Below the pieces are notes generated by a model, which did no database searches, was not told where the DNA came from, and worked only from the letters and a program-made list of their open reading frames with translations. Below are positions 46,640 to 50,800 of a DNA stretch of 64,000 bases, piece by piece. Both the position numbers and the translations under genes were made by a program. The DNA is from an uncultured Gaiellales bacterium. GTDB lineage: Bacteria; Actinomycetota; Thermoleophilia; BMS3ABIN01. Each line of letters begins with the position of its first letter. The first letter of the stretch is position 1. The stretch lies in NCBI GenBank assembly GCA_964497425.1, contig CAZCCR010000004.1, forward strand, positions 6,345 through 70,344. Direction: 5' to 3'.

Positions 46640-49600
46640 TCAGACCTTCTCGACCCTGACGGCGCATACCTTTAATTCCGGGATCTTGCAGACCGGGTCA
46701 CGGGCGGTGTTGGTAAGAAGGTTGGCGGCGGCTTCAGCGTAATGGAAAGGCAGGAATACACTCCCGGCGGCAGTTCTCGTCTCCACCGAGGCGCGCGCCT
46801 CGAGCGTGCCCCGGCGGCTGATGACCCGGATGAGGTCGCCGGAATCTATGCCCAGCCTGTCCGCGTCGGCGGGATTCATGTCCACGCGGGCATCCGGTTT
46901 CAGCTGGTCCAGACCGCGTGAACGCCGGGTCATGCTTCCCGTATGGAAATGCATCAGGTCGCGTCCGGTGTTCAGGACCAGCGGGTATTCCTCGTCCGGC
47001 AGCTCTGCGGCCTCGATGAAGTCCACCGCCGCCAGCTTGCCGCGGCCGCAGATGAACTCCTCCGCGTGAAGGATGGCCGTCCCCGGGTGGGACTCGGCGG
47101 GACAGGGCCACTGCACCCCGCCGCGCTCCAGCCTCGCGTAGCGGATGCCCCCGTACTGGGGCACAAGGCCGCGGGCCTCGTTGAGAACGTCCTTGGGAGA
47201 GGCGTAGTCCCATGCCGCCCCCATGGTATTGGCTACGTCGCGCACGATACGCCAGTCGGGGCGCGCGTCTCCCAACGGCTCGATGGCCTTCCGCACCCGC
47301 TGCACCCGCCGCTCCGTATTGGTGAAGGTGCCGTTCTTCTCGGCGAATGTGGTCCCCGGCAGCACCACGTCCGCCAGCGCCGCCGTCTCGGTGAGGAAGA
47401 TATCCTGCACCACCAGGAATTCCAGGTTCCTGAGGCCGCTTTCCACATGAGAGGCATCCGGGTCCGACATCATGGGGTTCTCCCCCATGACGTACATGGC
47501 CCTGAGTTCTCCGGCGCCGGCGGCGTCGATCATCTCCGTGACGCTCAGGCCCGGGTCGTCGTTCAGCTCACAGCCCCAGGCCTCGCCGAAGCGGGCTCGG
47601 GCTGCCTGGTCCGTGACCTTCCGGTAGCCGGGCAGCAGGTTGTGCAGCCCTCCCATGTCGCAGCAGCCCTGGACGTTGTTGGCGCCGCGAAGGGGATTGA
47701 CACCGGTCCCCGGCAGGCCGATGTTGCCGGTGATCATGGCCAGGTTGGCGATGCTGCGGACGTTGTCGGTGCCGGTAGCATGCTGGGTCACGCCAAGGCA
47801 GTAGGCGATGGAGCTGCGCCCCTCGCCGGCGTAGAGACGGGCGGCGGCGGCGATATCGCCGGCGTCAACCCCGCACACGGCCGCCGCCTGCTCCAGGGTC
47901 AACTCCTCCAGACTGTCCAGCAGCTCCTGATAACCCTCTGTGCGCAGCTCGATAAATGAATCGTTCTGAAGCCCTTCGTCCACGATGACCCGCATCATGC
48001 CCTTCAGGAGCGCTACGTCGGTGCCGGGGTTGATCTGCAGATGGATGTGGGCGCGCCGCGCCAGCCTGGTCGCCCGCGGGTCCACGACTATCAGTTTCAT
48101 GCCCCGCCTCAGCGCCCGGTTCAGCTGCATGGCGATGACGGGATGGGCGGTGGTGGTGTTGGAGCCTATGAGCAGCATCACGTCCGCCAGCCCCATATCG
48201 CTGATGGAGTTGGTCATCGCCCCGCTGCCGAACGCTGTCGCCAGACCGGCGACGGAAGGAGCGTGTCATAAACGGGCACAGTGGTCCACGTTGTTGCTGC
48301 CGATCACGCTGCGTATGAACTTCTGCAGCAGATAGTTGTCCTCGTTGGTGCAGCGGCCTGACGCCAGTGCTCCCACCGCCCTGCCGCCGTGCTCGTCGCG
48401 GATGCGCTCCAGATTGGCCCTCACCTCCTCGAGCGCCTCTTCCCATGAAGCCGGCGTCAACTCGCCTTGACGCCTTATCAGCGGCGTGGTCAGCCGGTCA
48501 GGATGCTGGATGAAATCGAAACCATATCGGCCCTTGACGCAGAGGCTGGAGCCGTTGACCGAATAGGGGTCGTCGGCGGTCACCTCGATGATCCTGCCGT
48601 GATCCACGTGCAGGTTGATGGAGCATCCCACGCCACAGTAGCAGCAGGTGGTGTTGACCTCCTCAACCTCCTCCGGCTTGCCCCTGAGAGGTAGCGGTCT
48701 CAACTCCCGGCTCATGCGGTTGTCCAGGGCGCCGGTGGGACAGGCGGACACGCACTGGCCGCAGAAGACGCAGTCGGTCTCCTTCAGCTCCCCCTCGAAA
48801 GCGCAGGCGATATGGGTTTCCATGCCCGTGCCCGCCAGCTCCACCGCCTGTGCCGCCACAACCTGGTCGCAGATCCTGGCGCAGGCGCCGCAGGCGATGC
48901 ACTTCTGGTAATCGCGGCTGATGACCGGGTTTCCGTCATCCAGCGCCGGCACCCGGCGCATGGCCCCGCGGAAACGATTGGAGGTGATGCCGTACTCCAC
49001 GCCCAGTCGCCTGAGTTCGCAGAACTCCTCAGCCTGGCATACGCACTGCATGCATCGCGCCGCTTCCATGCGCGCCTGCTTCTCGTCATAGCCAAGCTCA
49101 ACTTCGGAGAAGTCGGAGCAGCAGTTCTCCGGACAGATGGTGGGCATGGGCTGGCGGGGAGTATCCACGGCCGGTTCCTGCCTTATATCCAGGTAGACCG
49201 GCTCCGCTTCGGTGAACTGGCGGGAGGCTTCCACCACGCTCTCGCCCCGCAGATAGGCATCGATGTTGGCCGCCGCCTTCCGGCCCGCCGCCACCGCCTG
49301 GATGACCGTGGCCGGGCCGCTCACCACGTCGCCGCCAGCGAAGACCTCGGGCCGGGCCGTCTGCATCGTCACCCGGTTCACTACGATGGTGCCCCATTCG
49401 GAAGTCCTCACACCTTCCTTCTCCGGCAGGAAGAGCACCTGCTTGCCATCGGTCTCGTGATAGAGTTTGGGCTTCTGGCCGATGGCGACGATGATGGTAT
49501 CGGCTATCATGTCGAATTCAGAGCCGGGGATAGCCATCGGGCGCATACGGCCACCCCTCCGTGTCTCCACCAGCTGCGTCTGCATGCAGCGCAGGCCGGT

Positions 49601-50800
49601 GGCGCGGCCGTCTTGGGTCTCGATCAATTCGGGGATGGCCATCAGCTGGAAGGTCACCCCTTCCGTCTCAGCCTCTTCCACCTCCGATTCATGGGCCGGC
49701 ATCTCCGCCCTCCCGCGGCGGTATACAATGGTGGACTGCTCCGCCCCCAGCCTGATGGCGGTCCTGGCCGCGTCGATGGCGGTGAAGCCCCCTCCCACCA
49801 CCACTACCCGCTTGCCGATCTGGACGCTCTCGCCCGCGCGCACGCGCCTGAGGAAGTCCACCGAAGAGATGACGCCTTCGGCCTCCTCGCCGGGGATCAT
49901 CATCTGATGGTCGCCATGGGCGCCCAGGGCCAGATAGATGGAATCGAAACCATCCGCCAGCAGGCTGTCGATGTCGAAGTCCCGTCCCATGGCGGTACCG
50001 GTCTCGAGCTCCACTCCCAGGGACCAGAGCTGTTCCAGCTCCTGTTCCAGCACCTCCGTGGGCAGCCGGTACTCGGGGATGGCGTAGCGCATCATACCCC
50101 CCGGTTCCGGAAGCGCCTCGAAGATGGTGACCTGGTGGCCCTTGAGGGCCAGGTAATAGGCGCAGGTGAGACCGGAGGGGCCGGCTCCCACCACGGCCAC
50201 CCGTTTGCCTGTAGGCTCCTCACGGGGGAAGGGCAGATCGTCGAACCCCTGTCCGGCAGTCTCGTCACCGGCAAAACGCTTTATGGTGCAGATGGAGACC
50301 GGCTCGTCGTTCTCGCCCCGGCGGCAGACCGACTCGCAGGGCCGGGGGCAGACGCGTCCCAGCGAGCGGGGAAAGGGCAAGCGCTGCTTGATTATCCGAA
50401 CCGCCTCCCGCGGGTCGCCCCAGGCCACCGCCTTCACGTAGCCGGGGATATCCAGCTGGTCGGGACAGCCGTTCTGGCAGGGAGGCAGACAGTAGGCGTT
50501 ATGGTCGGAAAGGATCAGCTCCAGTATCAGGCGACGGTGTTCACGCAGCTTCTCGCTGTCCGTTGTCACCCTCATGCCCTCCTCCACCGATGTGGTGCAG
50601 GCGGTCCTGATATCCTTCTCCGTGTTGACGTGGACGACGCACATGCGGCAGGCGGCGACCGGTTCCATGCGGCCATCGCTGCAGAGATTGGGGATGCGGA
50701 TATCGGCGCCGGCGGCCGCTTCGAAGATGGTCCGGCCCGCGAGCGCCTCCACCTCCCTGCCGTCGATCGTCAGCCTGACGACGTCGCCTCCTTCAGTCAT
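46640..50800 (-). CDS. fdhA: selenocysteine formate dehydrogenase alpha subunit fused to 2Fe-2S, 4Fe-4S and GltD-like NAD(P)H/FAD domains. The in-frame TGA (Sec) is at 48266-48268
   Basis: ORF-track entries 48266..50800 and 46640..48217 are in the same frame. The upstream ORF ends ...[11 protein letters not shown] and translation continues [23 protein letters not shown]. This is the canonical FDH-H Sec context (CSRVUHGPSV). A hairpin GTCGCC-GGTCT-GGCGAC lies 13 nt downstream of the TGA (SECIS-like). The N-terminus has NuoG-like 2Fe-2S and an inserted GltD-like domain (VAVVGAGPSGL). Confidence 0.85.

Follow-up and report, generated by a model that had tools for sequence, protein, structure and literature searches.

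Among the nearest known counterparts of the system reported here are NADPH-linked formate dehydrogenases (FDHs) and the Stn and Nfn-Bfu transhydrogenases. The NADPH-FDH of Moorella thermoacetica is encoded by the genes sfrB2-sfrA2-fdhF3, and its NADPH side is provided by sfrB2 (PMC13040438); in Geobacter, SfrB is a GltD-like NADPH-binding subunit (PMC7483475). Fdh3 of Thermococcus onnurineus is a tungsten (W) enzyme that prefers NADP and possesses an NfnL-like subunit, Fdh3B, and its reversible NADPH-dependent reduction of CO2 has been measured (PMC8965080). The function of StnC and of NfnA, the large subunit of NfnABC, has also been described (PMC10482914, PMC11829005). In StnC, NADPH reduces a non-bifurcating flavin adenine dinucleotide (FAD), electrons then enter an Fe-S chain, and the Fdh-like branch is described as an evolutionary leftover that no longer functions (PMC10482914). 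In an earlier study of related Wood-Ljungdahl Actinobacteria, gltD, nuo and fdh appeared as separate genes in a gene-neighborhood figure. Here, we analyzed a 64,000-nucleotide stretch (the window) of contig CAZCCR010000004.1 (assembly GCA_964497425.1, forward-strand positions 6,345 to 70,344), which comes from an uncultured Gaiellales bacterium of the Actinomycetota. In reverse-complement orientation, the window corresponds to JGI contig Ga0256747_1000045 (81.4 kb). The gene fdh in this window is almost certainly one FDH gene that is recoded for selenocysteine (Sec) and carries an embedded GltD-type module. Its product is probably a cytoplasmic Sec-FDH/CO2 reductase of about 150 kDa with a W- or molybdenum (Mo)-bis-pyranopterin center, which would work as a self-sufficient, NADPH-linked chain.

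The gene callers report fdh as two open reading frames (ORFs) on the minus strand, one of 844 aa (48266..50800) and one of 525 aa (46640..48217), which lie in the same frame and are parted by one TGA. Translated from 50800 to 46640, the single frame comprises 1,386 codons plus the stop codon, and the TGA at 48268-48266 is its sole internal stop. A protein search with the joined query returned thousands of relatives, and the best 120, most of which cover 92-100% of the query, were inspected. Among these 120, 115 are full-length proteins (1,307-1,448 aa), in which the residue at the position of the TGA was scored with the motif pattern H-x-[AS]-R-x-?-H-x-x-[ST]. The pattern matched in 107 of them, and in every one the residue is a cysteine (Cys). 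The five closest proteins among the matches listed (66-100% identity) all terminate at DHCARL, indicating that they are truncated at the same codon. In the DNA of relatives, the same codon is a TGA within an open frame of 1,384-1,420 codons; this was found in loci L002-L008 and in L009-L013, the latter being loci of a genome collection (two Actinomycetes Dive96 bins, BMS3Abin01, Gaiellales SURF_19 and Thermoleophilia Kmv30). Eight related loci of this actinobacterial clade share both the TGA and the open frame beyond it. Relatives at 71-86% identity retain the TGA, the frame and the hairpin described below. In comparisons with four relatives, the ratio of nonsynonymous to synonymous substitution rates (dN/dS) was 0.09-0.23 downstream of the TGA and 0.13-0.29 upstream of it. 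The downstream values are as low as or lower than the upstream ones, and the 541 codons beyond the TGA are therefore translated. The NCBI Fdh-alpha model TIGR01591 is divided in the same manner: the N-terminal piece matches model positions 1-128 (154.8 bits) and the C-terminal piece positions 130-672 (653.4 bits), only position 129 being missing. Neither piece passes the cut-off of 666.25 by itself, whereas the simple sum of the two exceeds it. These results bear out the sequence-only reading, a description made from the letters of the window without database searches, which had joined the two ORF-track entries into one gene and had placed the TGA in an FDH active-site context; this context is seen directly in the translation. 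In 22 of the 36 window genes, TGA is the ordinary stop. The recoding is thus site-specific and entails no change of the genetic code, and global reassignment of UGA was ruled out, TGA being the main stop codon of the window. A scan of the window for further read-through TGA candidates yielded only noise apart from the fdh site.

Downstream of the UGA lies a hairpin that we compared among relatives as a candidate selenocysteine insertion sequence (SECIS) element. It begins 12 nucleotides (nt) past the last base of the UGA; the sequence-only reading had described its GGUCU loop correctly but had given the distance as 13 nt, which is the position of the first stem base and not the gap itself. For this comparison, 79 related FDH genes were taken from genomes, the active-site codon being TGA in 54 of them and TGC or TGT in 25. 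A perfect 6-bp helix occurs in the identical register in 53 of the 54 TGA-type genes, the loops being GGUCU (50) or GGGCU (4), whereas none of the 25 Cys-type genes has the six pairs, and the Gly-Leu codons at this place vary freely among them (GGC CTG, GGA TTG and others). When 53 distinct Sec-type sequences were aligned, pairing held in 99.7% of the cells, no slid register is comparable, and compensatory changes with both sides altered (G-C, C-G, A-U) occur in three of the six pairs. RNAalifold, unaided, predicted the same helix. A covariance model of our own, built from 41 Sec-type sites, all of them non-actinobacterial, gave its highest score in 437 kb to window positions 48268-48225 (46.5 bits, E about 3e-8); all homologous Cys-type sites scored lower, the best of them 38.7 bits. 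The confinement of the helix to TGA-type genes, together with the compensatory changes, argues for a working SECIS, and the hairpin behaves like those of the fdh type. The earlier proposal that it is consistent with a bacterial SECIS agrees with this specificity and covariation. As in other bacterial fdh genes, SelB with Sec-tRNA(Sec) would presumably recognize the hairpin and recode the UGA.

The domain order of the deduced protein (Table 1) is a [2Fe-2S] domain, a GltD/NfnL-like module inserted via two Cys-rich junctions into a NuoG-like Fe-S domain, and then the FDH domain. Within the module, Pyr_redox_2 spans residues 200-506 in the Pfam search, the FAD site reads VGAGPSG (204-210), and the NADPH site reads VGGGFTA (335-341) and VYRRGRAEMPA (359-369). 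In the alignment, these two NADPH-type motifs recur in NfnL, StnC and NfnA, each of which is an NADPH-binding protein. The Molybdopterin domain holds U845, H846 and R1038, the last within NPLRGANNVQG. The best whole-length matches were NfnA (9bov_A, query residues 7-1050) and StnC (8oh5_C, query residues 8-1051), and the N-terminal 650 residues are colinear with both, the insert aligning end to end with both junction motifs included. Cys-rich junction motifs of this kind have been described as scars left where GltD was inserted in a NuoG-like protein (PMC7483475); the first junction motif of the fdh product fits the mark described for StnC/NsoC, and the second closely resembles the described mark. 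The catalytic half resembles FDHs, among them the F420-FDH 9t1s_L, HDCR FdhF 7qv7_S, FdsA 6tg9_A and FdhH 1aa6_A, and the match extends to query residues 1383-1386 for bona fide FDH chains but only to about 1050 for StnC/NfnA. Because the FDH branch is intact, with its [4Fe-4S] site, Sec845-His846, Arg1038 and dinucleotide-binding domain, the protein is best read as a live form of the StnC/NfnA architecture, that is, an FDH with its own NADPH-FAD input module.

Table 1. Coordinates of fdh, of its parts and of three neighboring genes in the window
Feature	Coordinates	Strand	Basis or score
fdh gene: predicted Sec-containing formate dehydrogenase/CO2 reductase with inserted GltD/NfnL-like NADPH-FAD module	46640..50800	-	frame, Pfam, homologs, TIGR01591
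Fer2_4, N-terminal [2Fe-2S] ferredoxin-like domain, residues 7-82	50555..50782	-	Pfam
Junction motif HxxxCxxxCxxxCP, residues 100-113	50462..50503	-	alignment; PMC7483475
GltD/NfnL-like module, including Fer4_20 (residues 105-182, two [4Fe-4S] sites)	49283..50488	-	Pfam, alignment
Second junction Cys motif CxxCxCxxxxxC, residues 583-594	49019..49054	-	aligns with motif in 9bov_A, 8oh5_C
NuoG-like 2x[4Fe-4S] ferredoxin (4Fe-4S dicluster), residues 625-692	48725..48928	-	Pfam
FDH catalytic unit: Molybdop_Fe4S4 714-765, Molybdopterin 769-1191, Molydop_binding 1274-1380	46661..48661	-	Pfam
UGA, predicted selenocysteine codon, residue U845, followed by catalytic His846; context DHCARL-U-HAPSV	48266..48268	-	
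Putative SECIS apical hairpin: GUCGCC (48253-48248), loop GGUCU (48247-48243), GGCGAC (48242-48237); 6 bp, 5-nt loop	48237..48253	-	
nfnB-like gene, 498 aa, GltD/SudA-type; stops 37 nt short of the fdh start	50838..52334	-	TIGR01316 604.2 bits (cut-off 471.75)
nfnA-like gene, 281 aa (NfnA/PyrK-type); 13-nt overlap with nfnB	52322..53167	-	NF004862 411.6 bits (cut-off 220)
Degenerate NuoF-like gene (NuoF'), 453 aa	53189..54550	-	NuoF model 68 bits (cut-off 558)

The gene fdh is the last gene of a complete Wood-Ljungdahl cluster, whose order on one strand is fhs, RACo, cooC, folD, ..., acsD, cooS, acsB, acsC, an hdrA/mvhD-like gene, metV, metF, acsE, nuoF', nfnA, nfnB and fdh. We aligned NuoF' with HydB (7p5h_B) and found that its glycine-rich loop for flavin mononucleotide (FMN) and NADH is deleted and that CGEE is replaced by GSED. 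All four Cys that belong to the N3-type [4Fe-4S] cluster are retained. With a dN/dS of 0.20-0.43, NuoF' evolves faster than its neighbors, yet it is constrained. Its N-terminal segment, judged by eye, looks like a NuoE helical remnant that lacks the [2Fe-2S] Cys, and no gene for a NuoE-type [2Fe-2S] subunit (2Fe-2S_thioredx) was found in the Wood-Ljungdahl cluster. NuoF' may be a partner of the FDH or a relic adjoining it. The sequence-only reading had already placed fdh next to nfnAB and a degenerate NuoF-like protein within this cluster and had described NuoG-like 2Fe-2S and 4Fe-4S domains and a complete GltD-like FAD/NAD(P)H domain on the molybdopterin subunit; both descriptions hold, the former by family cut-offs, the HydB alignment and gene order, and the latter by Pfam and the alignment to 9bov_A and 8oh5_C.

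In the mechanism that we propose, a hydride would pass from NADPH to FAD, single electrons would travel along the Fe-S chain to the W/Mo-Sec site, and CO2 would be reduced there to formate. NfnAB would use reduced ferredoxin and NADH to remake NADPH, which the FDH would spend on CO2, as in a Moorella-like scheme; NfnAB is also present in Moorella thermoacetica. That a single polypeptide suffices is plausible, because three sampled Cys-type fused homologs occur without partner genes nearby. These three loci, in assembly GCA_002376455.1 (L090), on a Methylocystis hirsuta-type contig (L091) and in a Chloroflexota metagenome-assembled genome (MAG; L092), have no NuoF, NfnA or GltD genes alongside, and in the Chloroflexota MAG, the Cys-type fused gene directly follows metV-metF. 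At a distance of 2.7 kb in the same MAG (L092 14718-20050), we observed a conventional set comprising NuoE, a 974-aa FdhA and a NuoF that bears additional 4Fe-4S domains, so this genome contains FDHs of both designs.

Several observations weigh against the reading of fdh as a recoded gene for a self-sufficient NADPH-linked enzyme, and they have to be considered together with the alternatives. The folding energy of the hairpin is unexceptional for GC-rich DNA (z = -0.75 at 62% GC), so the support for the SECIS is comparative and not thermodynamic. The Rfam model SECIS_3 (RF01989) matches over its full span with the UGA in register, at 33.6 bits against a gathering score of 63, and seven relatives scanned at the Rfam gathering threshold gave no SECIS match. 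Given these sub-threshold scores, relatives included, we do not claim membership in SECIS_3; set against bacterial SECIS models, the fold is upheld by its conservation in TGA-type relatives but does not reach the Rfam cut-off. In addition, neither a tRNA gene, tRNA-Sec included, nor selA, selB or selD turned up in the window or among 13 related loci, and no SelA, SelB or SelD domain was detected in 30 further window ORFs or in the part of the contig beyond window position 64000. Such a lack of Sec machinery in the regions searched would suit a split gene or a pseudogene, in which an 844-aa GltD-like Fe-S flavoprotein would be followed by a 525-aa molybdopterin fragment starting at ATG 48217, or by no product at all, and this is how the ORF callers and public annotations handle the locus. 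However, the 16 codons from the TGA to this ATG hold the catalytic His and match the Cys-type homologs. The ATG itself encodes the Met of GAMTNS, a motif whose DNA sequence does not vary among the 53 Sec-type relatives aligned, and makes an atypical gene start, and the 25 nt before it form the SECIS region, with no clear ribosome-binding site. The retention of the TGA, the frame and the hairpin over the same range of identities, the purifying selection downstream of the TGA and the restriction of the hairpin to TGA-type genes are likewise difficult to reconcile with a broken gene. The split-gene or pseudogene reading was rejected on these grounds, and we consider it highly improbable. An equally slight chance is given to the idea that the protein is no formate dehydrogenase but a subunit of a transhydrogenase of the Stn/Nfn-Bfu type with a catalytically dead FDH-like scaffold. 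Its best whole-length relatives are indeed 9bov_A and 8oh5_C, with which it has domain order and junction motifs in common, but the Fdh-like domain of StnC/NfnA is reported to be inactive, and the match to these proteins ends long before that to the FDH chains. In the window protein, moreover, the TIGR01591 domain is entire, Molydop_binding, Sec845-His846 and Arg1038 are all present, and a Sec codon, costly as it is, has been conserved; the bifurcating partners (NuoF with FMN, NuoE) are degenerate or absent. The completeness of the catalytic domain and the conservation of the Sec codon led us to reject the dead-subunit reading.

A more serious alternative, though still an unlikely one, is that the FDH belongs to a multi-subunit complex as its catalytic arm, docking NuoF', as StnC docks StnB, and possibly NfnAB. 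CO2 reduction by such a complex might draw on NADPH plus reduced ferredoxin and/or NADH (confurcation); alternatively, the electrons of NADPH might be bifurcated to CO2 and NAD+. Here, too, part of the evidence runs against a self-sufficient chain: nuoF'-nfnA-nfnB precedes fdh in most Sec-type loci of the clade that extend far enough upstream, the closest solved homologs, StnC and NfnA, function only with NuoF- and NuoE-like partners, and in the deltaproteobacterial Sec-FDH relatives a single operon encodes NuoE, FdhA and an intact 1,014-aa NuoF::GltD fusion. A complex would also agree with the purifying selection on NuoF' and with its four retained [4Fe-4S] Cys. However, NuoF' lacks both the glycine-rich FMN/NADH loop and CGEE and falls far below the NuoF cut-off, and the cluster offers no NuoE-type [2Fe-2S] subunit. 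The overlap of nfnA and nfnB, each above its own family cut-off, fits an ordinary, separate NfnAB, and the three fused Cys-type homologs from other lineages have no such neighbors. We give a slightly smaller chance to the specific form in which a live StnC/NfnA counterpart, the decayed NuoF' and possibly NfnAB make up one complex that splits or merges electrons among NADPH, NAD(H) or ferredoxin, and CO2. If true, this would be an electron-bifurcating or -confurcating CO2 reductase of a new kind, standing as a living intermediate between Bfu-type formate dehydrogenases on one side and the Stn and Nfn-Bfu transhydrogenases on the other. For the self-sufficient NADPH-linked chain, which we prefer, literature searches returned no characterized enzyme of the same live fused architecture and no biochemical study of a live fused GltD-FDH, whether of the Sec or the Cys type. 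NADPH specificity, CO2 reduction as the working direction, a W or Mo center and single-chain self-sufficiency are what we infer from the homologs.

Other features of the region were also recorded. Directly upstream of metV (DUF5981)/metF (55400-56990, minus strand), a 667-aa HdrA-like protein is fused to an MvhD/FlpD domain (56993-58996, minus strand), and this position beside metV-metF suggests an Hdr/Mvh-linked methylene-tetrahydrofolate reductase in the same cluster. A DsrC-family gene (L089 5841-6170, past window position 64000 on the contig) sits between folD and acsD within the Wood-Ljungdahl cluster and is encoded on the opposite strand. Immediately downstream of fdh, a large envelope-polysaccharide cluster (31098-46450, minus strand) contains Bac_transf, MatE/Polysacc_synt, Wzy_C, Wzz and glycosyltransferase genes as well as three type I phosphodiesterase (PF01663) paralogs, and the synteny of fdh, Bac_transf and Phosphodiest is kept in BMS3Abin01 and SURF_19. 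Beside an exopolysaccharide gene cluster, a c-di-GMP-I-GGC riboswitch aptamer (29729-29803, minus strand; 76.4 bits in Rfam against a gathering score of 59) is positioned either at the 5' end of a 629-aa ORF (28000-29889, minus strand) or a little upstream of it; this ORF has fibronectin-III and purple-acid-phosphatase N-terminal domains. On the plus strand, a 363-aa ORF that has no Pfam match is followed by a PqqD-family gene (22962-24364, the latter at 24053-24364), and a radical-SAM/SPASM protein is encoded at 30009-31055; these three may constitute a peptide-modification set resembling those for ribosomally synthesized and post-translationally modified peptides.

Sec-FDHs, SECIS elements, the splitting of ORFs at UGA and GltD-linked NADP-FDHs are established already, and the recoded stop is real but ordinary. 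The fused architecture is also common, with at least 115 full-length homologs among the best 120, several of which NCBI names 'formate dehydrogenase subunit alpha'. The novelty is therefore modest, namely a Sec-type member of a widespread fused family in the Wood-Ljungdahl cluster of an uncultured actinomycetote, and the finding is useful and unsurprising, given its known components and the many fused proteins that databases already contain. The other new points are small: the fused family is best read as the catalytically live counterpart of StnC/NfnA, and it has, in this locus, a decayed NuoF-like neighbor. Another fusion pattern of the same four modules was observed in L021 (4970-10000), where genes for NuoE, a thioredoxin-like protein of small size and a NuoF::GltD fusion of 1,014 aa come before a Sec-type FdhA gene; about 20 deltaproteobacterial loci among L016-L088 resemble it, and we found no description of this NuoE/NuoF::GltD/FdhA pattern. 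In practice, gene callers split the Wood-Ljungdahl pathway's first enzyme in this clade, so metabolic reconstructions can miss or misread the CO2-reducing step; in the public record of BMS3Abin01, for example, the N-terminal half is labeled 'glutamate synthase small chain'. If the single-chain reading is true, no simpler metal CO2 reductase driven by NADPH would be known, since one chain would unite an NADPH site, a flavin, an Fe-S wire and a Sec-W/Mo center. Such a chain would be an attractive target for biocatalysis, and it would serve as the natural 'active' standard against which to compare the dead Fdh-like domain of StnC/NfnA.

The product of fdh can be compared with five known systems. 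Among solved proteins, it is most similar over its whole length to the Bfu-family large subunits StnC (Sporomusa ovata StnABC, 8OH5) and NfnA (Caldicellulosiruptor saccharolyticus NfnABC, 9BOV) in domain order, junction motifs and NADPH-site motifs. However, their Fdh-like domain is reported to be inactive and is matched only to about query residue 1050, whereas the fdh product has the whole of it, from the Sec, His and Arg residues to the dinucleotide-binding domain. In addition, StnC and NfnA need intact NuoF-like (BfuB, FMN) and NuoE-like (BfuC, [2Fe-2S]) partners, which perform the bifurcation, while the present cluster has a NuoF' devoid of the flavin site and no NuoE. The W-Se NADP-FDH of Moorella thermoacetica (EC 1.17.1.10), to which the fdh product is likened by description, is likewise a cytoplasmic Sec-FDH that reduces CO2 with NADPH in the Wood-Ljungdahl pathway; its modules are separate polypeptides, whereas here they are fused in one chain. 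Fdh3 of Thermococcus onnurineus similarly combines a metal FDH with an NfnL/GltD-like FAD protein (Fdh3B) and has an Arg-Arg pair at the 2'-phosphate site, but it is archaeal, consists of four separate subunits and uses Cys instead of Sec. FdsABG and Fdh1AB also carry Cys as the active-site residue. These enzymes (Rhodobacter capsulatus 6TG9, Methylorubrum extorquens 7E5Z) have a NuoG-like Fe-S N-terminus followed by the FDH and are strongly similar to the query over residues 605-1383; they differ in using NAD(H) via separate FMN-containing NuoF/NuoE-like subunits and in having no GltD insert. The Cys-type fused GltD-FDHs of Thermoleophilia, Dehalococcoidia, Methylocystis hirsuta and others (1,307-1,448 aa) have the same full architecture and active-site motif, and most of the matches listed align over 92-100% of the length at 43-51% identity. 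They possess Cys (TGC/TGT) and no SECIS hairpin, and the three examined have no nuoF', nfnA or nfnB alongside. The hallmark of the NADP-FDHs, a GltD/NfnL FAD module with an NADPH-type site and an Fe-S link to the FDH, is thus present in the Gaiellales protein, fused into one chain instead of being distributed over separate subunits.

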